Numbered from the stretch's first letter, positions 14,064-64,000 are shown. The stretch is DNA of 64,000 nucleotides from an uncultured Actinomycetes bacterium (GCA_963739065.1 CAVTYV010000004.1:193677-257676), one strand, 5' to 3'. Made by a program: numbers and translations. The notes: generated by a model not told the origin, from the letters alone.

Positions 14064-14205
14064 TGCGCCTCCTTTTCAGTGCCGCCTGTAAGCGGCTGGC
14101 CGCTCACAAGACGGCGACCTAAGGCCTATATCTTCCCACTCGACCGAAAAGGCGCAAACATCCGCGCAGTGACCAGGGGAGCGCGTGAGCGTCTAGATCG
14201 AGTCC

Positions 14206-15840
14206 TTGCGGGCGGTCCGCGCCGTCTTCGCCAACCCGCGCCTGCGCAGCCTCGAGCTGGCGCTCGTGGGCTCGGTCACGGGGGAGTGGGCCTACGCGAT
14301 CGCCCTCGCCGTCTACGCGTTCGAGCAGGGGGGCGCGGGCGGCGGTGGGTCTCGTGGGCCTGATCCGCTTCCTCCCATCGGCCTTCGCCGCCCCTTTCGC
14401 TGCCGTGTTCGGGGATCGTTTCTCGCGCGTGCGCGTGATGGTCGTCTCGGACGTTCTCCGAGCGCTCACCATGGCCGGGGCGGCCGTCGCAATCTTCGGG
14501 GACGCTCCTGCCGGAGTCGTCTACGCGCTGGCCGGGGTCGTCGCTGTCGTCTCCATGGCGTTCCGCCCCGCGCAGGCTGCGCTGCTTCCTTCCCTCGCGA
14601 GAACTCCCAGCGAGTTGACGGCGGCGAATGTCGCCTCGACGACGATCGAGAGCATCGGGAGCTTCGCCGGCCCGGCCCTCGGTGGCCTGCTGCTTGCGGC
14701 GACCGACGCGGGCACGGTCTTCGCCGCGACAGCCGGGGCATTCGTCTGGTCCGCCGCTCTCGTGCTGGGCGTGGACTCCTCGCCGCCCGAGCGTCGCGAC
14801 GCCGAGACGTCCGGCATCGTCGCGGAGGCGGTCGCCGGGTTTCGCGCGATTCTCGGCGAAGCCCGCCTCCGCCTGGTCGTCGCCCTCTACGCCGCCCAGA
14901 CGTTGGTGGCCGGCGCGCTGAACGTCCTCATCGTCGTCATGGCGCTCGAGCTTCTCGACCTCGGCAGCTCCGGCCCGGGATTCCTGAACGCCGCGGTCGG
15001 GATCGGAGGCCTGTTGGGCGCCGTACTCGCTCTGGCGCTCGTCGGGCGCCAGCGGCTGGCCGGAGACTTCGGCCTCGGGCTCCTTCTGTGGGGGATCCCG
15101 ATCGCGTTGATCGGCGTGTGGCCGCATGAGGCGCCGACGCTCGTCCTCCTGGCCGTGGTGGGGATCGGGAACACGCTCGTCGACGTCGCCGCGCTGACCC
15201 TGCTCCAGCGGGCGGCTCCGGACGAGGTGCTGGCCCGGGTCTTCGGCGTGATCGAGAGCCTGCTCGTCGGCGCGATCGGCCTGGGCGCGATCCTCGCACC
15301 GGTGCTCGTGTCGGCCTTCGGTGCGGACGGCGCCCTCATCGCCACCGGAGCGTTCCTCGCCGTCGTCGCCGCTGTGTCGTGGCCGCGCCTCCGCCGGATC
15401 GACGCCGAGGTGGCCGTTCCGGAACGCGAGCTGGCTCTGCTCGCGAAGTTGCCGCTCTTCGCCCCCCTGCCTCCGGCGACCATCGAGCATCTGGCGCGGA
15501 GCCTCCAGCCCGTGCTTGTGGCCGCGGGAGAGGAGATCGTGCGCGAGGGGGAGCCGGGAGACCGGTTCTACGTTGTCGCGAGCGGAGAGGTCGAGGTGGC
15601 CGCCGACGGCAAACCGCTGCGCACGCTAGGACCCTGGTGAGTACTTCGGCGAGATTGCCCTCCTCAGGCCCGTCCCGCGCACCGCGACCGTGATCGCCCG
15701 CGCGGACGCCGAGCTCCTCACGCTCGACCGGGACGAGTTCGTCGCCGCGGTGACCGGACATCCCGAGAGTCGCGAGGCGGCCGACGCAGTCATCGGCGCG
15801 CGGCTCGGCACGCTGCGGGCAGGCATGGCGTCCCTTTAGT
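14206..15840 (+). pseudogene. MFS transporter fused to a C-terminal cyclic-nucleotide-binding (CAP_ED) domain, two frame breaks
   Basis: The N-terminus (TTG 14206, LRAVRAVFANPRLRSLELALVGSVTGEWAY) continues into the 14345 ORF only after a 1-nt shift in the G6 run at 14328-14333. The cNMP domain (PLFAPLP...GEPGDRFYVVASGEVEV...) is cut at 15631-15640. It resumes in another frame with the canonical [10 protein letters not shown]...RTATVIA motifs and runs to TAG 15838-15840. Confidence 0.8.
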
Positions 15841-15854
15841 CGTAGGCTTAGGCG

Positions 15855-41100: not shown

Positions 41101-41819
41101 CCGGCGCGGCCTCCTTCGCGACCGCGTTCCTCGGCGGCGCGATCGGCCTCGTCCTCGGCAGCCTGCGTCTACCGGCGCTCCTCCTCGCCGCGACGAGCCC
41201 CGCGGCTGCGGCCGGGACGAACATCGCCGTCAGCGCCTCGGCCGCGCTCACCGCCGGCGCCACCCACGCCCGAGCCGGTCGCGTCGACTGGAGGATCGCC
41301 GCCTGGATGACACCTCCGTCGGTCGCGGCCGCCTTCCTCGGCGGCTACTTCGGCGGGCTCCTGCCGGAAGGGCTCCTGCTCGCGGCGATCGCGGCGCTGC
41401 TCGCCTGGAACGGCGCCCAGCTCCTGCTCGAGCTGGGGACGCCGCGCCGGGCCCGGCGCCCGCATCTCGCCGCAGCCCTCGCCGGCGCGGCGATCGGGCT
41501 TATCGGCGGCGCGGTCGGCCTCATCCTCGGCACCCTGCGGATGCCCGCACTGCTCGGAAGCGTCGGCCTGGATGCCTACCGGGCCGTGGGGACGAATCTC
41601 TTCGTCGGGTTCTTCCTGGGCGTCTTCGGATTCGCCGGCCATGCGATTCGGATGGAGGTCGACTGGGTGCTGCTCGCGGTTTGCGTAGCCGCGACCGTTC
41701 CCGCTGCGTGGCTCGGCGCTCGTTTGACCGGGAGGCTCTCGGAGCGCGCCGTGCGCCGCTGGCTCGGAGTTGCACTGATCGCGGTTGCCGTCGCGATCGC
41801 GCTTGCGGCCGCGCTCTAG
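41076..41819 (+). CDS. TauE/SafE family (sulfite exporter-like) membrane protein, start uncertain
   Basis: Two-fold repeated GGAIGLVLGSLRLPALL / GGAVGLILGTLRMPALL motifs in a hydrophobic protein. No ATG/GTG/TTG is available near the first TM, so CTG 41076 is the nearest candidate. Confidence 0.7.
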   Translation: MEAWELLLAGAASFATAFLGGAIGLVLGSLRLPALLLAATSPAAAAGTNIAVSASAALTAGATHARAGRVDWRIAAWMTPPSVAAAFLGGYFGGLLPEGLLLAAIAALLAWNGAQLLLELGTPRRARRPHLAAALAGAAIGLIGGAVGLILGTLRMPALLGSVGLDAYRAVGTNLFVGFFLGVFGFAGHAIRMEVDWVLLAVCVAATVPAAWLGARLTGRLSERAVRRWLGVALIAVAVAIALAAAL

Positions 41820-41822
41820 TAG

Positions 41823-44529
41823 CTAGCGCCCGCGTGACGCGGCGGAAGCGACTGGCTCACCGTGTGCATGAGGCGCTGATCCCAGAACAGGATCGGGCTC
41901 GACGTTTCCCGCCGTGACGTTGCGGGGGAGACGCGGCTTGCGGGCGCGCAGCGCCATTGCGCCGGCCGCGACGAACGCGCCGCCGAGGAGGGTGAGACCG
42001 AGCCAGTCGGCGCAACGGTGAGGAGCTGTCTTCGCCCGCCGTGAAGCTCTGCGGCTGCACTTCGCCCGAGCCGCCCGAGCTTTCCGTTCCATCCGACCCG
42101 GTCGCCGGAGTCAGCGGGGTGCCGCCGGTCGTGCCTCCGGTCGTTCCTCCGGTCGTGGCCCGAGGTGGGGCCGGGAGTCGGTGCACCGCCGTTGTAGGAA
42201 GGCCCCGGATAGGTCGGCCCACCAGAGGTGGTCCCTGATCCGAACCCGCCGCCGGCCGGCGGCGGAGGAGTCGTGCCGCCCCTGCTGGCGGGCCCGCGGG
42301 AAACCGTTAGGCCGATCGCGGCACCCTTCAGCGCCACGCCCGAGCGCGAGCTCAGGACGAGCCCGGCGCCGACCGTTGCGGAGTAGGAGTAGCGCACCGC
42401 GCCGGTGCGAAGTCCGCGGGCGGTCAGGCGAGCCTTCGCCGCAGCCGGGGTCAGCTTCTGCACGGCGGGGACGATCACGAGCGCGCGGGTCTTGGGCCCG
42501 ACGTTGCCGGCCGCGTCGCGCGCCGCGAGCTGGAAGGCCCGGGAATCCGAGGTCTTGAAGGCGCCCATGTTGGCGGAGCGCTTGGATCCCGCCAAGGTCT
42601 TGACCACGGATCCGTTCGCGTAGACGAGGTACGCGTCGACGACGCCGCTGTTGTCCGTGGCCGCCTTCCACTTGAGGACGAGGTGGCGGTTCCGGTTCGT
42701 GCCGGAGAACTTCCGAGGCTTGGTGGGCACCCTGACGTCCTTGAGGAGGCTGAAGGAGGAGAGGTGCTTCGTGAGGATGTGGACGTTCGACCCGGACTTG
42801 TAGAAGCCGTCGACCCAGCCGCTCGGGAGGCTCGTGCCGCTCGGGATGCGGGCGATCGTCCGCCAGGCACCGCTTTCGAACGTGGCGGGCACGACGTTCG
42901 CTGCGCCCGGGATGGTCAGGTCGAGGGCCTTCGAGAAGGTGTGCACCGCAGTGCCCGCGAGCGCCCAATGCGCCGAGACGTCGTAGATGTCGCCCGCAGT
43001 CTCGAACCCGCCCGGCACGGTCGCCGGCGGCCGCGGGTCGATCCGGATGACGAGCCAGTCGCCGCTCGGTGCGCCGCTCCACGCTCCCGACGGGACGTTG
43101 ATCTGGCCCTCGCCGCTCGTCGCCGTCAGCGACGTCAGCCGACTCCAGGGAACGAGTTCTTCTCGATCCACGGGTAATCGGCCGCGGCGAGGCTCCAGAC
43201 CGTGAAGTGGACTGCAATCGCATGCGCGGTTGCCCGCCGCATCCTCGAGCTCGCCGGTGAACGTGTGCGGCCCGTCCGCGAAGGCGGCGGTGTAGGTGGC
43301 GGTCCCGCCGAGCGAGGAGCGGGGCCGGGGCGGCCGAGCCGTCGAGGGTCGCATTGGCGATGCCGGCAGAGGTTCTCGTCCGCGACGATGGCCAGGGACC
43401 CGGCGGCGGCCACGAGCTCGCCGTCGGCGGGCACAGAGGAGGTCAGCGAGGGAGCCGTGTTGTCGACCGTGACCGTTCGCACGGGCGAGTTCGCGGGGTT
43501 GCCCGCGTTGTCGGTCGCCCGGGCACGGAGGTCGTAGCTGCCGTCGGCAACCCCGGTCGTGTTCCAGCTCGTGGCGATCGTCGTCCAGATGCCGGCGCCC
43601 GCAGGCGAGCGCTGGACGATGAGGCTGGCGACTCCAGAGCCGCTGCCGTCGTCTGCCGAGGGGCTCAGGGTCACGGTGCCGCGCAGGGGCGAGCCGGGGT
43701 CGGCCAGAGAGACGTTCGGCGCGGTCGCGTCGATCGTCCACGCGGCGCTGTCGGGCGTCGCGTCCGTGTTGGCCGAGCCGTCGGTGGCGCGAACGTCGAA
43801 GGTGTGGGCGCCGTCCGCGAGGCCGGTGAAGGTGGCAGGGCTCGAGCAGGAGGCGAACGCCGCGCCGTCCACCGAGCACTCGAAGGTGCTGCCGGACTCG
43901 TCGGAGGTGAACGCGAAGGTCGCATCCGGGACTCGCCGAGAGGGCGGGCGGGCCCGACGTGATCGTCGTCTCGGGCGGGTCGAGGTCGGCGGCGTTGTTG
44001 ACCGCTGCTCCAGTCGAACTGGACGCTCACCGCGGAGCCCTGGTACGCGTTCTCCGACGCCGGGGCCGGCGTCGGGGAAGAAGACGCGGAACTCGTAGAC
44101 GCGGGCCGCTCCGGCCGTCAGCGTTCCGAGCGCGACCGGCGTGAGCGCGTCGATCTTGCCGTTGTAGACGACGACTGGGGAGCCGGGGGCCGTCACGTCG
44201 CGAATGCGTAGGTCGAGCTCACCGGAGAGGACGCCGCCGCCGCCGCCCGGCGTGTCGACCAGGTTGGAAGTGGAGAGCGAGAGGTCGCCTTCGAGCGTGC
44301 CGGTGTTCCCGAGCGTCACGGTGTCGGTGACGGAGTCGCCCGGCCGCATCCCGCCGAGCGAGAGGATGGCGGCGCCTTCCTTGTCGTTGGAGAGGGTCAG
44401 CGAGCCGCCGGGGCCCGCAGCGAGCTCGAGCTGTGCGCGAGAAGGCTGCTGGCCGCCCGAGAGGACGGCCAGGCAGATCGCGACGATCACGACGGCGAGG
44501 ACTTCGAGTCTGAGGAAGATGCGTCGCAT
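41823..44529 (-). pseudogene. giant surface protein 2: TasA-like N-domain + Ig-like + FN3-like + PASTA-like + C-terminal anchor, many frame breaks
   Basis: ATG 44529 (MRRIFLRLEVLAVVIVAICLAV) lies 2 nt after the upstream TAG. The N-domain parallels the TasA-like protein at 47575-48135 (GMRPGDSVTDTVTLGNTGTLEG, YEFRVFFPDAG, SVQFDW). It is followed by PPETTITSGP...TFECSVDGAAF...HTFDVRATD and one 96-aa Ig-like unit. Then come FN3-like LVLKWKAATDNSG, PASTA-like LTARGLRTGAV...GLTVSRGP, a G/T/P linker, and a hydrophobic segment plus RARKPR. By my reading at least eight frame changes are needed (near 44050, 44000, 43950, four in 43400-43140, and 42190-42030). Confidence 0.6.
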
Positions 44530-44531
44530 TC

Positions 44532-46884
44532 CTAGAACTCCGCGTCCACCGGAGGGGAGGTCTCGAGGCAGGTCACCGTCGTGATCGCGTTGCCAGCGAT
44601 GTCCGTGAGGGCCGCTGCGACCGGCCAGCTCGGTCTGTCCCGTGGTGCCGGCCTGGGTGAACTGGGGCTTGTCGGGGGCGCCGAGCGTCAGCGTGACCGT
44701 CGTCCCGCTCTGAGCGATCGTCGAGTTCGAGAAGACGACGGCCTTACCGTTCTGGATGTAGCCCGTGCCGCCGAGCGTGATGAACCCGTTGACGAGCGTC
44801 GCGCCGGTGATGGAGAGGTGGTTGCCGGTGTCCATCGTCACCGTCACGTTCTGCGTGCCGGTGCCGTTCCAGCCGGCGACGATCGTGCCGGGGGCAATCT
44901 GCTCGCTGAAGGTGAAGACGAGGGTGTCGCCCTGCTGCGGCTGCCCGGGCGTCGTGCCGGTGACGCCGGTCTGGACGTTCGTCGCCGTCGGCGCCGTGTT
45001 GTCGACGACTCGGTTCGAGACTGTCGAGGAGTTGGTGGCGTTGCCGGCGTTGTCGGTCGTGACCGCGCGGAGGTCGTAGCCGCCGTCGGAGACGCCGGTC
45101 GTGTTCCACGAGCAGGAGTAGGGGCTGGTGGCGTCGGTGCAGATCGTCGTCCACGTCGATGTGCCGGTCGGCGCGCGCTGGATGGCGACGTTGAGGACGC
45201 CGGAGCCGGCGTCCGTGCCCGTCGCGTTGAGCGTGACGGTCTGGCGGAGCGGCGAGCCGGGGTCGGTCAGGCCGGCCGTCGGCGCCGTGTTGTCGACGCG
45301 GCGGTTCGTCGACCGTGGAGGAGGTCGTCGTGTTCCCCGCGTTGTCCGTGGTAATAGCGCGGAGGTCATAGAGGCCGTCGGTGACTCGCGGTCGTGTCCA
45401 AGGCGCAGCAGTAGGGCGACGTGGCGTCGGTGCAGATGTCAGTCCACGTTCCGGCGCCGGCCGGCGAGCGCTGCATCTTCACGCTGGCGACCCCGGAGCC
45501 GCCGTCGGTACCCGTGGCGCCGACAGGTGACGGTCGGATGCAGAGGCGTGCCCGGATCCGTGAGGCCGGCGGTGGGAGCCGTGTTATCGACGCGCCGGTT
45601 CGTCACGGTCGACGAGGTCGTCGTCTTGGCCACGTTGTCCGTCGCGATCGCGCGCAGGTCGTAGAGCCCGTCGGAGACGGCCGTCGTGTTCCACGAGCAC
45701 TGGAAGGGCGAAGTCGTGTCGGTGCAGATGTCCGTCCAGGTGCCCGCACCGGCGGGGGAGCGCTGGATCTTGACGTTCGCGACGCCGGAGCCTGCGCCGT
45801 CGCCCGCTGTCGCGTCGACGGTGATCGTGCCCTTGAGGTACTGGCCTGGATCCGTCACGGAGACGGTCGGAGCGGTGTTGTCGACGATCGCGCCCGAGTA
45901 GACGGTCGAGTTGGCCGTGTTGCCCGCGTTGTCCGTGGCGACCGAGCGGAAGTCGTACTGGCCGTCGGCGAGCCCGGTCGTGTCGTAGGAGCACGAGTAG
46001 GGCGACGTCGTATCGGAGCACATGTCGCTCCAGGTGTTCAGCCCGGTCGGGGAGGACTGGAACTTGAGGGAGGCGACGCCCGAGCCGCCGTCGCTCGCCG
46101 TGCCGTCGAAGCTCTTGTTCCCGGTGATGGGCGAGCCCGGATTCGTCATCGTCGCCGTCGGGGCGGTGTTATCGACGCGCCGGTTGGTGACGGTCGAGGA
46201 GTTCGTCGAGTTGCCCGCGTTGTCGGTCGAGACGGAGCGGAGGTCGTAGAGCCCGTCGGAGACGGCCGTCGTGTCCCACGAGCACGAGTAGGGGGAGCTC
46301 GCATCGGTGCAGATGTCAGTCCAGGTTCCGGCGCCTGCCGGCGAGCGCTGCACCTTCACGTTGGCAACGCCCGATCCGCCGTCCGTGCCGGTCGCGCTGA
46401 CACTGACCGTTCCCTTGAGGGGCGTGCCCGGGTCGGTGATTCCGGCCGTGGGTGCCGTGTTGTCGACGCGGCGGTTCGTCACCGCCGTCGAGGTTGCGGA
46501 GCCGCCGGCGTCGTTCTGGACGAAGGCCCGGAAGTCGTACAGCCCGTCCGTGACGGTCGTGCTGTCCCAGGAGCAGGAGTAGGGCGACGTCGAGTCGGTG
46601 CACGCCGTCGTCCAGGTGCCCGCGCCCGCTGGGGACTTCTGAATCGTCACGAGCGTGATCGAGGAGCCGTCCCCTCCGTCCGAGGCTGTGGCCTGGAGCG
46701 TGGCCGTCGCGTGGAGGTTCGTTCCCGGATCCGTCATCGTCGCGCTGAGGTTGAAGGCGTTCGAAGCCGTGAAGCTGTTCCCCGAATTGGCGCTGGCCGC
46801 GGTGAACGCGGCCCCGGAGAACGTGACGCCAGCCACGACGAGAGCCGCGACCGCGAGGAACGATGCGAGGGCGCGAAGCCTCAC
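44532..46884 (-). pseudogene. giant surface protein 1: SipW-type signal peptide + six tandem ~96-aa Ig-like repeats + C-terminal domain, frame breaks in the 3' half
   Basis: The N-terminus MRLRALASFLAVAALVVAGVTFSGAAFTAASANSGNSFTA is TasA-class signal-like. Repeats fit VDNTAPTxxxTDPGxPLxGTVxxxATGxDxGSGVANVKxQRSPAGAGTWTDICTDxxSPYSCSWxTTxVxDGLYDLRxxxTDNAGN. The gene is intact from 46884 to about 45560. About four frame changes are then needed at 45300-45530 and one near 44600, before TAG 44532-44534. Confidence 0.65.
45006..46749 (-). repeat. tandem array of six ~288-bp coding repeats (Ig-like modules)
   Basis: Protein-level periodicity is seen in the track ORFs 45439-46884 and 43135-45369. The units are divergent at nucleotide level but share conserved blocks. 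Confidence 0.7.
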
Positions 46885-47552
46885 GAACGAGCCTCCGGAG
46901 CCGTCGCAGCCTTGCGCACGTCACGGCGGAAGCCGACGAGCACTGCGAAGGCGATCAGGAGTGCCGGCAGACCGATCAGCACCATCCGGACCTGGCGGAT
47001 CGCCAGGGCGGAGAGCACGTAGCCGACGTAGGGAACATGGAAAGCGACGCGAGCCTGTGTGGCTCCGTCGAGGGTGAACGTCCAGGGATCGGCCGACTCG
47101 TTGGCGTCGCCCTTCGTGCGAAGGGCCTGCCGGCCGAGCTGATCGGAGCCGATCCAGACGATCCGGTGCGTGATGCGGCCGCTCGGGCCGGAGCCCGCAG
47201 GCGGCGTGTAGGTGATGGCGTCGCCGACGCGGAGGTCGGAGACGGGAACCACCTTGTCGAAGACGACTGAGCCGCGGTCGTACGTGCCCGTCATCGAGCC
47301 GCTCGTGATGACGTACCGCTGGTAGCCGAGGAGTCCCGGCAGGAGCATGAGCCCCGCAAGACCCAGGCAGGCCGCACAGAGGGCGGTCGCCAGAGCCGTG
47401 CCGAGCCGCTTCCGCGGGTTCCTCGGCTCCCAGCGGTAGTGATAGTCGTACGCCGTCTTTGTCGTCATCGACGTCTCCTCTTCAGGCTTCGGAGTGGTGA
47501 GCACCGGTTGTCCGGTGGAGGCGGGGCCGCCGAATTGCGGCCCCGACGCCAT
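46881..47552 (-). CDS. sipW: signal peptidase I, SipW/archaeal-ER type (S26B)
   Basis: ITSGSMTGTYDRGSVVF (Ser box), ITHRIV (His box), TKGDAN, an N-terminal TM and an extra C-terminal TM. It overlaps the downstream gene by 4 nt. Confidence 0.8.
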   Translation of the reverse strand: MASGPQFGGPASTGQPVLTTPKPEEETSMTTKTAYDYHYRWEPRNPRKRLGTALATALCAACLGLAGLMLLPGLLGYQRYVITSGSMTGTYDRGSVVFDKVVPVSDLRVGDAITYTPPAGSGPSGRITHRIVWIGSDQLGRQALRTKGDANESADPWTFTLDGATQARVAFHVPYVGYVLSALAIRQVRMVLIGLPALLIAFAVLVGFRRDVRKAATAPEARS

Positions 47553-47574
47553 TGCTCAATGGTCCGATCCGCCC

Positions 47575-48135
47575 TTAGGAGGCGTTCCAGTCGAACTGGA
47601 CGCTCGAGCTGTCGCCCTGGTAGGCATTGGTCGCGCTCGAGTCGAAGGTCACCGCGAACTCATAGCGGTGCTTCTCGCTCGCCACGAACGTGCCGAGAGC
47701 CGTCGAGCCCATCGCTGCGATCGTCCCGGTGTACTTGACCGGGTCGCCGACATCGCAGGTCGGCGCGCCGCTCGAGAAGTCGCCGCAGTCCTTCACGACG
47801 AGGTTGAGCTTGGCCGACATGGGGTTGGCTCCGTCAGAGTCGACGATGCTGGAGCGCGAGAGCACGAAGGCGCCGGAGAGCGAGCCCGAGTTCTGGACGT
47901 CAACCGTGCCAGTCGCCGAGTCGCCGGGCTTCATGTTGCTCGCTGTGAGGACCGCGAGGCCCTCCTTCGAGTTGAGGATCGAGAGCGTCCCGGCCGCGAA
48001 CGTGTTGCTCGGGTTCGCGGAAGTCGCCGTGAAGCTCGCGCTCGATCCGACTGCCACCGCGACTGCCGCGATCAGCGCCGAAAGGGCGCCCAGCGCGCGC
48101 AGCGGATGGCGTGCTACGAAGTCGAACGTGTGCAT
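47575..48135 (-). CDS. TasA/camelysin-like exported protein (186 aa)
   Basis: ATG 48135 is preceded by the SD AAAGGAAG. The signal region ALIAAVAVAVGSSASFTATSANPSNTFAAGTL is of SipW-cognate type. Body motifs are NMKPGDSATGTVDVQNSGSL, YEFAVTF and SSVQFDW. Confidence 0.75.
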   Translation of the reverse strand: MHTFDFVARHPLRALGALSALIAAVAVAVGSSASFTATSANPSNTFAAGTLSILNSKEGLAVLTASNMKPGDSATGTVDVQNSGSLSGAFVLSRSSIVDSDGANPMSAKLNLVVKDCGDFSSGAPTCDVGDPVKYTGTIAAMGSTALGTFVASEKHRYEFAVTFDSSATNAYQGDSSSVQFDWNAS

Positions 48136-48428
48136 TTGACTTCCTTTCTCTGCCGCAGGTTGCCGTTTGCATCCCTGCCGTTTGACAGTCTCGATATCGA
48201 CGGCCGCGGCGAGGCAAGGGCCGGAAGTCGGTAAGAAAACGGTCAGCAACCCCTCAAGAACCCTCATTCGAGGGACGTTTTCGGGGGTCGGCGGCGCGGC
48301 AGCCCTCATTTGGAGCCGCCGCGCCGCTGCCAAACCCTCCTAGCGGTGGATCTGGATGTTTCCGCCTGCGAGCACTGGTCGCCCGAGGCGTAGCCGTTGA
48401 CGGAAGGCTTCGGCCTCCCGGACGTAGA

Positions 48429-50105
48429 ATGAGCACGCCCATGGCCGCCACAGAGGACCGCCGGGAGGCGGACGCGACGGACGAATGGCGCCGCGAGCTC
48501 TACGCCTCCAAGGCCGAGCGCGAGGCGCTCTTTTCGACCGTTTCAGGGCTCGAGAACGAGCCCCTTTACACCCCGGACAACGTCGAGATCGACTACGAGC
48601 GAGACCTCGGCTATCCGGGCGTGTATCCGTACACGCGGGGGGTCTATCCCTCCATGTACCGGGGCCGTCTCTGGACGATGCGTCAGTTCGCGGGCTTCGG
48701 CACCGCAGAGGAGACGAACACCCGCTTCCGCTACCTGCGCGAGCACGGTCAAACCGGCCTCTCGACCGCATTCGACATGCCGACGCTGATGGGCTACGAC
48801 TCCGACCACCCGAAGTCGCTCGGGGAAGTCGGGCGCGAGGGTGTGGCTGTCGACTCGCTCGAGGACATGGAGCAGCTCTTCGCCGGCATCCCGCTCGGCG
48901 AGGTCTCCACCTCGATGACGATCAACGCCCCGGCGGCGATGCTGCTGGCCTTCTACATCTGCGTCGGCGAGGAGCAGGGCGTCACGCGCGACCGGCTCCG
49001 CGGGACGATCCAGACGGACATTCTCAAGGAGTACATCGCGCAGAAGGAGTGGATCTTCCCGCCGGAGCCGTCCATGCGGCTCTGCGTCGACATGATCGAG
49101 TTCTGTGCGCGCGAGGTGCCGCTCTGGCATCCCGTCTCGATCTCCGGCTACCACATCCGCGAGGCGGGCTCGACGGCCGCGCAGGAGCTCGCGTTCACCC
49201 TGGCCGACGGATTCGCGTACGTGGAGGCGGCGATGGAGCGGGGGCTGGGCGTGGACGACTTTGCGCCGCGACTTTCGTTCTTCTTCAACGCGCACATCGA
49301 TTTCTTCGAGGAGATCGCGAAGTACCGCGCGGCCCGACGCATCTGGGCGAAGGAGCTGCGCGAGCGCTACGGCGCCAAGAACCCGCGCTCCTGGCTCATG
49401 CGCTTCCACACGCAGACGGCAGGTGTCTCGCTGACGGCGCAGCAGCCGGAGGTGAACATCGTGCGGACGGCGCTCGAGGCGCTTGCCGCGGTGCTTGGCG
49501 GCACGCAATCCCTGCACACGAACTCCTTCGACGAGGCGCTGGCCCTCCCGACCGAGCATGCGGTCAAGCTCGCCCTTCGCACGCAGCAGGTGATCGCGCA
49601 CGAGACGGGCGTCGTCAACACGATCGACCCGCTCGGCGGCTCGTACTACGTCGAGGAGCTCACCAACCGGCTCGAAGCGGAGGCTTATGACTACTTCGAC
49701 CGCATTCGGGAGCTCGGGGGCGTCGTCGCGGCGATCAAGGAGAACTTCTTCCAGCGTGAGATAGCGGAGGCCTCGTTCCGCTACCAGAGCGAGGTCGAGT
49801 CCGGTCAGCGCGTCGTCGTCGGAGTCAATCGCTACGAGGATCCGAACGAGAAGGAGATCGAGATCCTCTCCATCGACCAGGCGCTCGAGAGCAAGCAGGT
49901 GGAGCGGGTGAAAGCGCTCCGCGCCCGCCGCGACTCGCGAGCTGCGGAGGCCGCTCTCGCCCGCCTGAAGCAGGACGCCGCCTCGGAGGACACGAACCTC
50001 ATGCCCGCGATCGTCGACGCCTCGAAGGCGTACGTGACTATGGGCGAGATGTGCGACGAGCTGAGGGCCGTATGGGGAGTCTGGAGAGAGACACCGGTCT
50101 TCTGA
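48429..50105 (+). CDS. B12-dependent acyl-CoA mutase large (catalytic) subunit, isobutyryl-CoA-mutase-like signature
   Basis: Mutase TIM-barrel motifs are present. [16 protein letters not shown] has Phe where MCM has Tyr, and [16 protein letters not shown] has Gln where MCM has Arg. There is no C-terminal B12-binding domain. The start is ATG 48429 or 48441. Confidence 0.85.
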
Positions 50106-60018: not shown

Positions 60019-60152
60019 CGGCTCCCGCTGCCCATAGGCAAACCGCGGCCTCGACCTATGGGTAGGTGCAGCCTGCACTTCGGGGCGTTGCCCCACAGGC
60101 CCTGAAAACGGGATAAATCCTAATACCGGCGAGCCTCGCCGGGCTCAGTGAC

Positions 60153-63100
60153 GTGCGGACCGCAGCGGCCCAAACCAACCGCCTCTGGCGGCTGACCCGA
60201 ACAACCCTCTGGCAGCGCTCCGCGCTCGCCGCCGGAATCATCGTCCTGGGCTTGATTCAGCTTGCCGGCTCGCAAGCGGCAGTCAGCGCGACGCCGGATG
60301 AGGTCGGGCAGTGGAGCGCGCCGGTCGCCTGGCCGCTCGTCGCCGTCCACATGTCCCTCGAACCCGACGGCCGGGTGTTCACGCTCGACGGGTTCGACGC
60401 AGCGCTGAACTCCGAACGGCTTTGGAACCCCGTCAACGGAACGTTCACCGCGGTTCCGTACAGCCGGAATCTCTTCTGCGCCGGCCACGTCCAGCTCGCG
60501 GACGGCCGCACGCTCATCGTGGGCGGCCACATCACAGCGAACTCGGGTCTCGCGGACACGACGATCTTCGATTCGCGGACGAACACGTACTTCCGCGGGC
60601 GCGACATGTCGGTGGGCCGCTGGTATCCGACCGCGACGGTGCTGCCCGACGGCCGCGTTCTGGCCTTCTCGGGCGACAACATCGTCCAGGACCGGCCCGG
60701 CGCAACGCATCCCTTCTCGGACGCCTCGGTTGACTCGCTCCCCTCTGTCTACGACCCGAAGACGAACACCTGGACGGACCTGACGGCTGCGACGCTGACG
60801 TCCCCGCTCTACCCATTCATGTTCGTGCTGTCGGACGGTCGCGTCTTCGACGCAGGCCCCGATACGACGACTCGCATCCTCGACGTCGGGACGTCCACGT
60901 GGACGACGGTGGGAACCAGCCCGATCGACGGCATGAGCGCGGTCATGTACCGGCCCAACAAGATCATGAAGGCCGGCACATGGGCCGACCCGGACTGGAA
61001 CGGAGCGCTCGCGTACAACGCCGCAGGCGGCACGGCGGTCATCGACATGAGCGCTCCCACGCCTACGTGGCGCTCGACCGCGCCGATGGCGTTCGGGCGC
61101 TCGTACCACAACCTCACCCTGCTTCCCGACGGAACCGTCCTCGCGAGCGGCGGCATGTCCGGGTCGGATGGGACCGATCTCACCAAGGCCGTGCTTCCGG
61201 CCGAGATCTGGGATCCGGACACGGAGACGTGGACGACGGTCGCCTCGCTCCAGAACGGCCGGGAGTACCACTCGACGGCCCTCCTCCTGCTCGACGGCCG
61301 CGTGCTCATGGCAGGCGGCGGCGCTCTGCCGGGCCGGGCCACCGACCAGAAGAACGCGGAGATCTACTCGCCTTCGTACCTGTTCAAGGGAGCGCGCCCG
61401 ACGATCTCGTCGGCTCCCTTGTCGGCCACCTACGGCTCTTCCTTCGACATCCAGACTCCGGACGCCGCCCAGATCACGAAGGTCTCCCTGGTCAGGTCGC
61501 CTTCGGTGACGCACGGGTTCGACCAGAACCAGCGCTTCCAGTTCCTCAACTTCACTCAAGGCGCCGGGAAGATCACCGTGCAGGCGCCGGCGAATGCGAA
61601 TCTGGCGCCGCCGGGCGACTACATGCTGTTCATCCTCAACGGCTCGAAGGTCCCCTCCACCGGGGTGATGATGTCCGTCTCCGCGCCGGTCGACTCGGCG
61701 CCGCCGACGGCTCCCTCGAACCTCCAGGCGGCCAGCGCGCCGGGGCAGGCGTCGCTCACGTGGACCGCGGCGACCGACGACGTGGGCGTCGCCCATTACA
61801 ACGTGCACCGCGGCACTACGAGCGGGTTCACCCCTACGGCCGCGAACCGGATCGCGCAGCCGGTCGGCACGAACTACACGGATGCCAGCCTCAGCGCGGG
61901 CACCTACTTCTACAAGGTCACCGCGGAGGACGTGGCCGGCAACGTCGGTCCGGCGTCGAACGAGGCGAGTGCGACGATCGTCGGCGGGCCGGCGATCGCT
62001 TCGTACGGGTTCGAGGAGGGGACCGGTTCGACCACGGTCGACATATCCGGCAACAGCAACAACGGGACGATCTCCAACGCGACGTGGTCCACAGCCGGGA
62101 AATTCGGAAAGGCGCTCTCCTTCAACGGCACGAACGCGTCCGTCTCGATCCCCGACTCGAGCTTGCTGGACCTCACGACGGGAATGACGATCGAAGGCTG
62201 GGTCAACCCGGCCGCGAGCGGCGGCTTCCGGACGATGATGGTGAAGGAGCGGCCCGGCGACCTCGTGTACGGCCTCTACTCGAGCTCGGACACGAACCGC
62301 CCGCAGTCGCAGGTCACGGTCGGGGGAACGGCGCGGCTTTTGAACGCGACCGCCACGATCCCCTCGGGCTCCTGGACCCATCTTGCGGCTACGTACGACG
62401 GGACGACGCAGCGTCTCTACGTCAACGGGACGCAGGTCTCGACGCTCGCCATTTCGGGGACGATTCTCACCTCGAACTCGCCGCTGAAGATCGGCGGAAA
62501 CTCGATCTGGGGCGAGTGGTTCGCCGGGTTGATCGACGAGGTGCGCGTGTACAACCGCGCGCTCACTGCAACGGAGATCCAGGCCGACATGAATGCTCCG
62601 GTCAGCCCACCGGACCCGCTGCCCCCGAGCGCGCCGGGGACGTTGACGGCAACCGGCGGGCTGGGGCAGGTCAACCTGAGCTGGGGAGCCGCGACCGACA
62701 ACCTCGGCGTCGCGAGGTACAACGTCCACCGCTCGACGACTCCGGGATTTACGCCGAGCGCGGGTAACCGGATCGCCCAGCCGACGGGGACGAGCTACAC
62801 CGACTCCGGTCTGGCAGCCGGCACCTACTACTACAAGGTCACTGCTGAAGACGCCGCCGGGAACGTGGGCCCGGTCTCGAATGAGGCGAGCGCGGCGGCG
62901 ACGGCCGATACGACGCCGCCGACGGCGCCGACCAACCTCCTGGCGACGGGAGCACCCCAACAGGTGAGCCTCACATGGACGGCGGCCACCGACGCCGGGG
63001 GAATCGCCCGCTACAACGTCCACCGGAGCACGACGAGCGGCTTCACGCCTTCGGCGGGGAACCGGATCGCTCAGCCCACGGGGACGAGCTACACCGACTC

Positions 63101-64000
63101 CGGTCTGGCAGCCGGCACCTACTACTACAAGGTCACTGCTGAAGACGGCGCGGGCAATGTCGGGCCCGGTTCGAACGAGGCCAGCGCCACCGTGCCCAAC
63201 GGGCCGCCGCCCGGGCTCGTCGCCGCCTACGGCATGGATGCCGGATCCGGCACGACGCTCGCCGACCAGTCGGGCAACGGCAACAACGGCACGCTCGCGA
63301 ACGTGAGCTGGGCCGGGCCCACGGCGGGCAAGTTCGGTAACGCCCTCTCCTTCAACGGGACGAACGCCTCGGTGAGCATCCCCAGCTCGGCCTCGCTCGC
63401 CCTCACGACAGGGATGACGCTCGAGGCCTGGGTGCGCCCGACGACGCTCTCGAACGGGGACTGGAACACGGTCATCTTCCGCGAGCGGCCCGGCTACTAC
63501 GCGGACGCCCTCTATGCCAACACGGGTGCGAACCGTCCCTCGGGCAACATCTACACGAACCTCGACTACGACCTGCGCGGGACGGCCCAGCTACCGCTCG
63601 CCACCTGGACGCACCTCGCCGCCACCTACGACGGCACCGTGTTCGCGCTCTACGTGAACGGGACGCAGGCCGCGACGGTCTTCGCGAGCGGCTCGATCAT
63701 CACCACCACGGGGGCGCTCAAGATCGGCGGCAACGCCATCTGGGGCGAGAACTTCAACGGACTGATCGATGAGGTGCGCATCTACAACCGCGCTCTCACC
63801 GTGGGTCAGATCCAGAGCGACATGAACGCGGCGATCACGAACCCCGATTCGACGCCTCCCTCTGCGCCCGGCACGCTGACGGCGACAGGCGGACTTACGT
63901 CTGCGCAGCTCACTTGGGGCACGGCTACCGACAACGTCGGTGTCGCGCGCTACAACGTCCACCGGTCGACGACCCCGGGCTTCACGCCATCGGCGGCGAA
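60153..64000 (+). CDS. giant secreted galactose/glyoxal-oxidase-like protein with FN3 and LamG (concanavalin-like) modules, 3' end outside the window
   Basis: This frame is open from 60117 to the window end; it is not in the track, presumably because it has no stop. GTG 60153 gives a signal-like N-terminus (SALAAGIIVLGLIQLAGSQAAVSA). It is followed by kelch-type propeller motifs (LFCAGHVQLADGRTLIVGG, VGRWYPTATVLPDGRVL, REYHSTALLLLDGRV). A DUF1929-like end (GDYMLFILNG) follows, then FN3-LamG-FN3-FN3-LamG-FN3. Confidence 0.8.
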   Translation, partial: MRTAAAQTNRLWRLTRTTLWQRSALAAGIIVLGLIQLAGSQAAVSATPDEVGQWSAPVAWPLVAVHMSLEPDGRVFTLDGFDAALNSERLWNPVNGTFTAVPYSRNLFCAGHVQLADGRTLIVGGHITANSGLADTTIFDSRTNTYFRGRDMSVGRWYPTATVLPDGRVLAFSGDNIVQDRPGATHPFSDASVDSLPSVYDPKTNTWTDLTAATLTSPLYPFMFVLSDGRVFDAGPDTTTRILDVGTSTWTTVGTSPIDGMSAVMYRPNKIMKAGTWADPDWNGALAYNAAGGTAVIDMSAPTPTWRSTAPMAFGRSYHNLTLLPDGTVLASGGMSGSDGTDLTKAVLPAEIWDPDTETWTTVASLQNGREYHSTALLLLDGRVLMAGGGALPGRATDQKNAEIYSPSYLFKGARPTISSAPLSATYGSSFDIQTPDAAQITKVSLVRSPSVTHGFDQNQRFQFLNFTQGAGKITVQAPANANLAPPGDYMLFILNGSKVPSTGVMMSVSAPVDSAPPTAPSNLQAASAPGQASLTWTAATDDVGVAHYNVHRGTTSGFTPTAANRIAQPVGTNYTDASLSAGTYFYKVTAEDVAGNVGPASNEASATIVGGPAIASYGFEEGTGSTTVDISGNSNNGTISNATWSTAGKFGKALSFNGTNASVSIPDSSLLDLTTGMTIEGWVNPAASGGFRTMMVKERPGDLVYGLYSSSDTNRPQSQVTVGGTARLLNATATIPSGSWTHLAATYDGTTQRLYVNGTQVSTLAISGTILTSNSPLKIGGNSIWGEWFAGLIDEVRVYNRALTATEIQADMNAPVSPPDPLPPSAPGTLTATGGLGQVNLSWGAATDNLGVARYNVHRSTTPGFTPSAGNRIAQPTGTSYTDSGLAAGTYYYKVTAEDAAGNVGPVSNEASAAATADTTPPTAPTNLLATGAPQQVSLTWTAATDAGGIARYNVHRSTTSGFTPSAGNRIAQPTGTSYTDSGLAAGTYYYKVTAEDGAGNVGPGSNEASATVPNGPPPGLVAAYGMDAGSGTTLADQSGNGNNGTLANVSWAGPTAGKFGNALSFNGTNASVSIPSSASLALTTGMTLEAWVRPTTLSNGDWNTVIFRERPGYYADALYANTGANRPSGNIYTNLDYDLRGTAQLPLATWTHLAATYDGTVFALYVNGTQAATVFASGSIITTTGALKIGGNAIWGENFNGLIDEVRIYNRALTVGQIQSDMNAAITNPDSTPPSAPGTLTATGGLTSAQLTWGTATDNVGVARYNVHRSTTPGFTPSAA
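62783..62852 (+). repeat. 70-nt block identical to 63078-63147 (inside adjacent FN3 modules)
   Basis: ACGGGGACGAGCTACACCGACTCCGGTCTGGCAGCCGGCACCTACTACTACAAGGTCACTGCTGAAGACG is present at both positions. Confidence 0.85.
63078..63147 (+). repeat. second copy of the identical 70-nt block
   Basis: See 62783-62852. The flanks are similar but diverged. Confidence 0.85.

Follow-up and report, generated by a model that had tools for sequence, protein, structure and literature searches.

A conserved TasA/SipW operon with two Ig-domain proteins in Gaiellaceae, and its probable role in a cell-anchored fibre

In TasA fibres, the N-terminal strand of each subunit completes the next subunit (PMC9674648). 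This donor strand corresponds to TasA residues 28-38, with hydrophobic contacts through F29, I32 and F39 (PMC9674648), and the accessory protein TapA donates its own N-terminus to TasA (PMC10151520, PMC9674648). How the fibre is attached to the cell is an open question in Bacillus, where anchoring and nucleation have both been proposed as roles of TapA. Here we describe an operon of four genes, g1-g2-g3-g4, encoding a TasA-family subunit (g1), a SipW-like signal peptidase (g2) and two putative surface proteins with immunoglobulin (Ig)-like domains (g3 and g4). It occupies 41.8-48.1 kb, on the minus strand, of a 64,000-nucleotide (nt) stretch of DNA from an uncultured Actinomycetes bacterium (GCA_963739065.1 CAVTYV010000004.1:193677-257676, hereafter the window). 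The window has a G+C content of about 69% and comes from a soil actinobacterium of the family Gaiellaceae; metagenome-assembled genomes from this family (Thermoleophilia, Actinomycetota) are its nearest relatives. Taking all results together, we think it probable that the operon, conserved in Gaiellaceae, serves to build a cell-anchored TasA-family fibre by donor-strand exchange, and that the frameshifts present in the window copies of g3 and g4 are errors.

Comparable systems have been described in archaea and in other bacteria. In the model for haloarchaeal Tat-fimbriae (Tafi), TafC is the tip and initiator, TafE and TafA form the shaft, TafD is the signal peptidase and TafF is the anchor, whose pilin-like acceptor domain is N-terminal and whose membrane segments are C-terminal (PMC11821415, PMC12337348). 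In Pyrobaculum calidifontis, the TasA homologue AbpA polymerises by strand donation; for AbpB, initiation of assembly through a complementing strand has been proposed, with its distal beta domains as adhesins. The paper on these two proteins already noted PF12389 proteins in Actinobacteriota (PMC9245690). The Gram-positive Clostridium perfringens has a SipW-dependent, TasA-like matrix protein, BsaA, encoded beside sipW; BsaA polymers with intermolecular isopeptide bonds, dependent on a type IV pilus-like system, have been reported (PMC11580942). No account of an actinobacterial TasA/SipW system that includes anchor or tip proteins turned up in a search of the literature.

The four genes were found at essentially the coordinates given by a first-pass annotation of the window, which had read them from the sequence as a co-directional minus-strand group (all operon coordinates below refer to that strand). 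The tight packing that it reported applies to g2/g3, where the g2 stop overlaps the g3 start (GTGA), and to g3/g4, which are separated by 2 nt, but not to g1/g2, whose spacer of 106 nt holds a conserved hairpin. Only g1 and g2 are intact open reading frames (ORFs). As written, the g3/g4 region is spread over three ORFs (45439-46884, 43135-45369 and 41816-43879) that overlap and differ in frame. In the Gaiellaceae relatives L001, L003, L004, L005 and L087, all four genes are intact and follow one another as g1-g2-g3-g4, a conserved arrangement of the kind for which a synteny search (sipW, a tasA-like gene and an Ig-repeat gene) had been proposed earlier. The four-gene locus is thus genuine and conserved.

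The first gene, g1 (47575-48135), is an intact ORF of 186 amino acids (aa) with an AAGGAAG ribosome-binding site. The protein scored 37 bits against Pfam PF12389 (Peptidase_M73/TasA; cut-off 22.5), its sequence matches the TasA entries 5OF1 and 8AUR in the PDB, and its orthologs are named 'TasA family protein' at NCBI. In the AlphaFold2 (AF2) model, the beta-sandwich core was predicted with a local confidence score (pLDDT) of 77-94, and the N-terminal residues 24-58 were disordered. When this model was compared to the PDB with Foldseek, the TasA fibre 8AUR ranked first (E 1.2e-5, template-modelling (TM) score 0.48), TasA 5OF1 sixth and AbpA 7UEG eighth, the TM-scores being modest. Therefore g1 belongs to the TasA family, as the first-pass annotation had proposed in calling it a small TasA/camelysin-like protein. 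The Pfam family name Peptidase_M73, like the JGI name of the orthologs ('spore coat-associated protein N'), would also suit a secreted camelysin-type metalloprotease, with the operon as a protease-export cassette. We regard this as very improbable, since the closest structures found were the TasA fibre and an archaeal bundling pilin, no metal-binding motif was seen in g1, and TasA itself is now a known fibre subunit (PMC9674648).

Between the SipW-type signal peptide and the jelly-roll core, g1 carries a segment that resembles the TasA donor strand, SFTATSANPSNTFAAGTL (47983-48036). Together with the residues before the likely cut, the sequence SSA-SFTATSANPSNTFAAGTL aligns with A-AFNDIKSKDATFASGTL of TasA. 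A related segment, AAFTAASANSGNSFTAS (46762-46812), follows the SipW-type signal of g3, and the mature N-termini of g1 and g3 have (S/A)FTA(T/A)SAN..N(T/S)F in common, which lines up with residues 28-39 of TasA. As in the Bacillus tapA-sipW-tasA locus, the subunit has its donor strand at the N-terminus, with the aromatic positions conserved, and a TasA-family jelly-roll subunit is encoded beside a dedicated peptidase of the S26B type.

That peptidase is encoded by g2 (46881-47468, 195 aa). It scored 67.4 bits against TIGR02228, the archaeal/endoplasmic reticulum-type signal peptidase I (cut-off 51.85), and its best sequence matches in the PDB are SEC11A and SEC11C. In the alignment to SEC11A the catalytic set is Ser/His/Asp, not Ser/Lys, and is kept in the motifs SGSM (47286-47309), THR (47157-47174) and KGD (47100-47117); a hydrophobic helix follows near the C-terminus (46929-46985). 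These features agree with the earlier description of an S26B, SipW-type peptidase with an extra C-terminal helix. Against the Bacillus SipW equivalog NF046067, g2 reached 57.7 bits for a cut-off of 190, so it is SipW-like by type and context without equivalog-level orthology to Bacillus SipW. The start of g2 had been placed at 47552. A GAGGAG ribosome-binding site precedes the ATG at 47468, and both orthologs and public gene calls have 195 aa; the true start is almost certainly this ATG, and the longer ORF to 47552 is probably unused.

The third gene, g3 (44532-46884), reads as an ORF of only 481 aa (45439-46884) in the window, because the first frameshift leads to a stop at 45439. After frame correction it becomes a conceptual protein of 782 aa, 93% identical to the intact 783-aa g3 of L087. 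The first-pass description of about 780 aa with six Ig repeats and the shared signal motif AAFTAASANSGNSFTA is right for this corrected protein, and the word 'giant' that it used for g3 and g4 is overstated for proteins of 780-900 aa. A tandem array found by Tandem Repeats Finder (44984-46626; 291-nt units, 5.6 copies, 72% matches) encodes Ig-like repeats of about 97 aa, and corrected g3 gave six Big_7 matches (E 1e-41). The array is followed by a C-terminal beta domain of 150 aa (44535-44985), which had no match in a Pfam search. Scans of g3 against Pfam and NCBIfam returned Big_7, Big_3_3, Big_13 and OmpL47-type domains only, with no TapA homology, and g3 has no TasA domain. The protein has 782 aa in the window, 783 aa in L087 and 873 aa in L001 (from the likely start), and in L002 it extends for about 1058 aa beyond the donor motif, which indicates that repeat copy number varies. 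Its orthologs keep the donor motif, including both aromatic (Phe/Tyr) positions. By its sequence, g3 would be TapA-like in role, as a donor-strand mimic, while lying outside the TapA family.

The last gene, g4 (41823-44529), combines a TasA-like domain with a long C-terminal extension. As written, it is an ORF of 464 aa from the ATG (43135-44529) that ends at a stop at 43135, and the length of about 900 aa given earlier is reached only after frame correction. The corrected protein is 93% identical to the intact ortholog P0001 (897 aa, encoded on contig L081). Over the N-terminal 175 residues, g4 shares 36% identity with g1 (BLASTP, E 5e-30). Domain boundaries were taken from the AF2 model of the intact ortholog (mean pLDDT 79.4; residue numbers below are those of the ortholog). 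An N-terminal helix, either signal or anchor (44452-44529 in the window), precedes the TasA-like sandwich (residues 45-176; ~44007-44403), which lacks the two Phe residues of the donor. Then come three Ig-like domains (187-442), a larger beta-sandwich (453-595), an FN3-like domain (603-684; from ~42727) and a PASTA-like alpha+beta unit (692-741; borderline PASTA domain at ~42290-42469). A disordered linker of about 90 aa, rich in Gly, Thr and Pro, connects the PASTA unit to a transmembrane helix (835-858; 41943-42002), and a short cytoplasmic tail with the motif FWDxRL (41849-41893) ends the protein. Across orthologs, the tail after the transmembrane helix, (L/I)xFWDxRL...RR, is nearly invariant. 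The paralogy with g1 and the ortholog model both uphold the earlier view of a TasA-like N-terminal domain fused to Ig-like, FN3-like and PASTA-like modules. A wall or membrane anchor had also been suggested for g4. The C-terminal transmembrane helix agrees with the membrane alternative; for the wall, the NCBIfam scan of P0001 found no sorting signal, and there is no LPXTG motif or nearby sortase at the locus, whose neighbours are ordinary metabolic genes (methylmalonyl-CoA mutase, TauE, acyl-CoA dehydrogenase and an oxidoreductase).

In the g4 orthologs, the segment before the TasA-like domain is as long as the donor, but has Gln/Lys and Gly/Pro at the two Phe positions. The likely cleavage site, SRA-Q, differs as well. 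The extreme N-terminus of g4, MRRIFLR (44509-44529), resembles the consensus RRxFLK of twin-arginine translocation (Tat) signals, and RR is replaced by RH or RG in some orthologs; the resemblance is ambiguous. A Tat-exported protein anchored by its C-terminal tail would be unusual.

The distribution of donor and acceptor features was followed across 80 sipW loci retrieved through the peptidase. A TasA-like gene lies immediately upstream of sipW in all 80. The mature N-terminus of these free subunits, G-S-(S/G)-A-(S/D/N)-F-(T/S)-A-x-S-A-N-P-x-N-T-F-x-x-G-x-L, is highly conserved across Thermoleophilia and aligns with TasA residues 28-47. Every motif-bearing TasA-like ORF is a free subunit upstream of sipW, with at most 6 aa after the domain (53/53). 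TasA-like ORFs downstream of sipW never carry the motif (0/44), and half of them (22/44) have a C-terminal extension of at least 100 aa (122-715 aa). Several Solirubrobacterales loci encode, after sipW, 'donor-only' proteins with other C-terminal domains. Many of the Solirubrobacterales loci (L007-L080) have two TasA-like genes upstream of sipW and one downstream.

An exhaustive search with the N-terminal domain of g4 returned 1003 clusters at 50% identity. The most closely related of the sampled members are g4-type proteins of 511, 726 or about 900 aa, which share a constant N-terminal domain and a constant C-terminal transmembrane helix with tail, and differ in the stalk between them. Many other relatives of the domain are proteins of about 300-350 aa. 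In the five of these that were read, a TasA-like domain without donor is joined through a linker rich in Pro and Ala to a highly basic beta domain at the C-terminus, which may be a wall-binding anchor. To judge from these sequences, a donor-less TasA-like domain joined to a cell-proximal module is a recurrent design. By these features, the proteins of the operon fall into three classes: donor plus acceptor fold (g1), donor without the fold (g3), and acceptor fold without the donor but with an anchor (g4).

This distribution was observed directly, as were the families of g1 and g2, the g1 fold, the N-terminal paralogy of g4, the domain layout and the conservation of the operon. We propose the following assembly, in which peptidase cleavage, strand exchange, the tip-shaft-anchor order and a function in adhesion are derived from sequence logic and from precedent. 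The g2 peptidase would remove the special signal peptides of g1 and g3, cutting before (S/A)FTA and exposing the N-terminal strand (S/A)FTAxSANxxNxF. As TapA does for TasA, g3 would donate its strand to the first g1 subunit and so come to lie at the distal tip, where it would display its six Ig-like repeats and terminal beta domain. Elongation would follow by head-to-tail addition of g1, the N-terminal strand of each subunit entering its successor. Acceptance of the last free strand by g4 would end growth, and g4 would tie the fibre to the cell through its Ig/FN3/PASTA stalk, the wall-spanning disordered linker and the C-terminal membrane helix. If polarity is that of TasA, where the N-terminal strand completes the next subunit, g3, then (g1)n, then g4 is the only consistent chain. 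In this proposal g3 would be initiator and tip, g1 the fibre shaft, and g4 an acceptor-only terminator and membrane anchor. The earlier idea of an anchored fibre matches the pattern of donor and acceptor features, whereas fibre assembly itself follows only by inference. In its strongest form, the proposal is that Gaiellaceae, and in simpler forms many Thermoleophilia, make a true TasA-family pilus, polar and growing from the base, with g3 as tip, g1 as shaft and g4 as a membrane-anchored terminator whose PASTA-containing stalk spans the wall. We put forward this fuller version tentatively, as a serious possibility that falls somewhat short of being probable.

Several points weigh against this assembly, one of which, the clustering of frameshifts, is treated below with the frameshifts. 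The TasA-like domain of g4 alone scored 15.1 bits (E 0.02), under the cut-off of 22.5 for Pfam PF12389. The PASTA match (PF03793, cut-off 23.2) reached 24.5 bits on the fragment and 20.8 on full-length g4; in the AF2 model of the ortholog this region forms a helix (692-701) and strands (705-741) with pLDDT of about 90, and PF03793 is present in the precomputed Pfam annotation of many g4 orthologs. If the N-terminal helix of g4 remained uncleaved, the TasA-like domain would sit at the membrane and the geometry would change. Finally, the N-terminal motif of g1 and g3 could serve SipW recognition alone.

On a simpler account, g1 would form unanchored, Bacillus-like matrix fibres, the motif would serve only the peptidase, g3 and g4 would be adhesins or wall proteins exported by SipW or Sec that merely share the operon, and the TasA-like domain of g4 would be just another beta-sandwich. 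SipW-type signals (TIGR04088) are indeed described as a signal class and not as donor strands; the TIGR04088 model was absent from the NCBIfam results for these proteins. Moreover, the full-length model of the g4 ortholog returned only generic Ig/FN3 strings in Foldseek (adhesins and S-layers), with no specific functional lead. We nevertheless find this account unlikely, because no TasA-like ORF in the 80 loci combines the donor motif with a C-terminal extension, because both donor Phe/Tyr positions are kept in g3 although it lacks the fold, and because the two ends of g4-type proteins are constant while the stalk varies, three findings that unrelated passenger domains would not lead one to expect.

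Compared to Bacillus, then, the anchored-fibre assembly would be less a departure than an elaboration. As in Bacillus, an accessory protein without the TasA fold mimics the donor strand (TapA there, g3 here), and the contrast with the Bacillus model drawn by the first-pass annotation does not apply to g3, a TapA-like, donor-only candidate initiator. It does apply to g4, an acceptor-only stalk and anchor protein without a Bacillus counterpart. Further differences are the gene order (tasA-like, sipW, g3, g4), the lack of homology between TapA and g3 with its six Big_7 repeats and C-terminal beta domain, the score of g2 below the SipW equivalog level, and the actinobacterial host (class Thermoleophilia).

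Among bacterial systems the Bacillus operon comes nearest; in architecture the closest match is the Tafi model. There too, in the proposed plan, a tip/initiator gives the first donor strand, small beta-sandwich pilins form the polymer, an acceptor acts as terminator, and an archaeal-type peptidase is encoded in the cluster. Tafi pilins are, however, DUF1102-like and reported as distinct from the ABP/TasA-like ones, their signals are of the Tat type, and the host is archaeal; g1 belongs to PF12389 and its signal contains no twin-arginine. The putative anchor of the window, g4, also has a far longer Ig/FN3/PASTA-like stalk. The resemblance is thus architectural only, and the layout of tip, shaft, membrane anchor and peptidase, already proposed for Tafi, is not new to this operon. 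The AbpA/AbpB locus lacks a signal peptidase of its own, a fusion of an acceptor-only domain to an anchor has not been described for it, and its sequence kinship with the present proteins is distant. In contrast to the sipW-bsaA system, no type IV pilus-like genes lie near the window locus. Sortase-assembled and chaperone-usher pili offer an analogy only, in their order of tip adhesin, shaft and basal or terminator subunit and in their growth from the base: no sortase, LPXTG, chaperone or usher is found here, and folds and enzymology are unrelated.

The window copies of g3 and g4 are interrupted by frameshifts, which were placed by DNA alignment to two independent Illumina contigs: L081, a JGI contig with 94.2% nucleotide identity over 4.4 kb, and L087, an ENA MEGAHIT contig with 95% identity over 5.3 kb and an identical SipW protein. 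In the linker (42150-42290), where frameshift-aware alignment is unreliable because of low complexity, the L081 DNA alignment was used instead. A frame plot of G+C at third codon positions (GC3) and three-frame translations showed the coding frame stepping repeatedly from 1 to 2 to 0 and back to 1. In total, 16 frameshifting indels were found in 5.06 kb, all shifting the frame in the same way. Four are single-base insertions in g3 (~45527, 45388, 45309 and 44637). The other twelve are in g4, and comprise ten single-base insertions (~44055, 44008, 43927, 43368, 43313, 43225, 42002, 41897, 41847 and 41833), a 2-nt insertion (~43139) that creates the stop at 43135, and a 2-nt deletion (~42158). 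Insertions of 1 nt thus make up 14 of the 16 events, most of them away from homopolymers.

Three other explanations of this pattern were tried and rejected. Programmed frameshifting is at odds with 16 sites that share no motif and with intact orthologs. Compensated frameshifts that preserve function fail on the stops at 43135 and 45439, even though +1 triplets restore the frame locally. Homopolymer-type error does not fit, as most inserted bases lie outside base runs.

The events are most likely sequence or assembly errors and not gene decay. Corrected g4, compared to L081, has no stop in 895 codons, a GC3 of 0.9-1.0 and a ratio of nonsynonymous to synonymous substitution rates (dN/dS) of 0.195, compared to 0.09-0.14 for the flanking genes. 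The relatives are intact, the bias is towards insertions, and frameshifts in the same direction occur in two other genes of the window. One is pdxH, for pyridoxamine-5'-phosphate oxidase (18458-19037, minus strand), split by a +1 frameshift at 18828-18848 (~18,835); its two pieces cover positions 12-54 and 55-118 of Pfam PNPOx_N, together with the C-terminal dimerisation domain, and score 86 bits when joined. The other is a fusion gene for a major facilitator superfamily (MFS) transporter and a cyclic nucleotide (cNMP)-binding domain (~14197-15850, plus strand), with +1 frameshifts at ~14,328 and ~15,630 that leave transmembrane helix 1 and the latter half of the cNMP domain in other frames.

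The frameshifts might instead be real, g3 and g4 being freshly inactivated pseudogenes in a cell whose products would be no more than free g1 fibres and truncated forms of g3 (481 aa) and g4 (464 aa), the latter unanchored. The distribution of the events is what speaks for this, and it is also the remaining point against the anchored-fibre interpretation. The 16 indels compare to at least three frameshifts in the remaining ~59 kb, so that the density in g3-g4 exceeds that elsewhere in the window about 60-fold, while the 1.5 kb directly downstream and the 1.67-kb upstream gene are free of indels relative to the relatives. A uniform error process is therefore insufficient, which leaves room for real, recent decay. 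The frameshifted g3 repeat is, in addition, locally more divergent, which would also fit a poor consensus over strain-variable sequence. We nonetheless judge recent inactivation to be quite improbable. Decay of bacterial genes is deletion-biased, and fourteen 1-nt insertions fit it poorly; dN/dS is 0.195, in-frame stops are absent, GC3 in the corrected frame remains at 0.9-1.0, housekeeping genes carry the same type of error, and intact g3 is found on contigs with identical g1 or SipW proteins. Nor are the genes pseudogenes in all relatives, the finding named beforehand as one that would have spoken against the operon: relatives carry intact g3 and g4. What had been described for the four genes is therefore largely right once frames are corrected, including families, order and an anchored fibre that fits the pattern; its weak points are the broken window copies of g3 and g4, which are not encoded as given, the contrast to Bacillus, and wall anchoring.

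A second gene for a large surface protein lies at 60117-63998 (plus strand) and runs past the window end (>1294 aa). It shows a weak match to the stalk region of g4. Being one uninterrupted ORF, it indicates that frameshifting is not universal among the large surface genes of the window.

The spacer between g1 and g2 holds a GC-rich hairpin with a perfect 9-bp stem, CGGGGCCGC-AATTCG-GCGGCCCCG (47522-47545). The 126-nt region with this hairpin has a folding energy of -62.4 kcal/mol (z = -5.0). All nine pairs recur in 7 Gaiellaceae loci, whose loops vary; one of the pairs appears as C-G, U-G (three sequences) or U-A (one sequence). The hairpin has no U-tract. It is possibly a terminator or attenuator that works without one, or a 3' stabiliser behind the gene of the major subunit, and could increase the ratio of shaft subunit to accessory proteins.

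Upstream of g1, a non-coding leader (48136-48430), without coding signal in the GC3 frame model, separates the operon from the divergent methylmalonyl-CoA mutase gene and is presumed to be its promoter region. A sigma-70 consensus scan of 41500-48700 found no promoter-like site, and a scan of the same region for U-tract terminators gave one terminator-like site, on the wrong strand and within chance expectation. In L087, an extra gene of 564 aa lies between the mutase gene and g1 (222-1916 of that contig), and has no equivalent in the window. It encodes a post-COAP-1 domain and gives a faint Big_1 match. Its presence at 95% nucleotide identity indicates that the locus gains and loses surface-protein genes.

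For annotation, the locus illustrates that a localised burst of single-base insertions can conceal two genes of 800-900 aa from ORF-based methods. For the biology of TasA fibres, its interest lies in the division of roles among separate proteins, whose sequences tell at which end of a chain of donor strands each can lie. This separation gives a clean, testable model of initiation, elongation, termination and anchoring. If the model is true, a dedicated terminator/anchor subunit would be a first for bacterial TasA-type systems, and monoderm bacteria would have a third way of making anchored pili, in addition to sortase and type IV pili. At the level of architecture, the locus connects the TasA system of bacteria with the Tafi and ABP pili of archaea. 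Gaiellaceae and Solirubrobacterales relatives were present in very many of the soil metagenome samples searched, with more than 1000 g4-type and g1-type proteins; such abundance suggests that these fibres could commonly serve for attachment or aggregation in soil.

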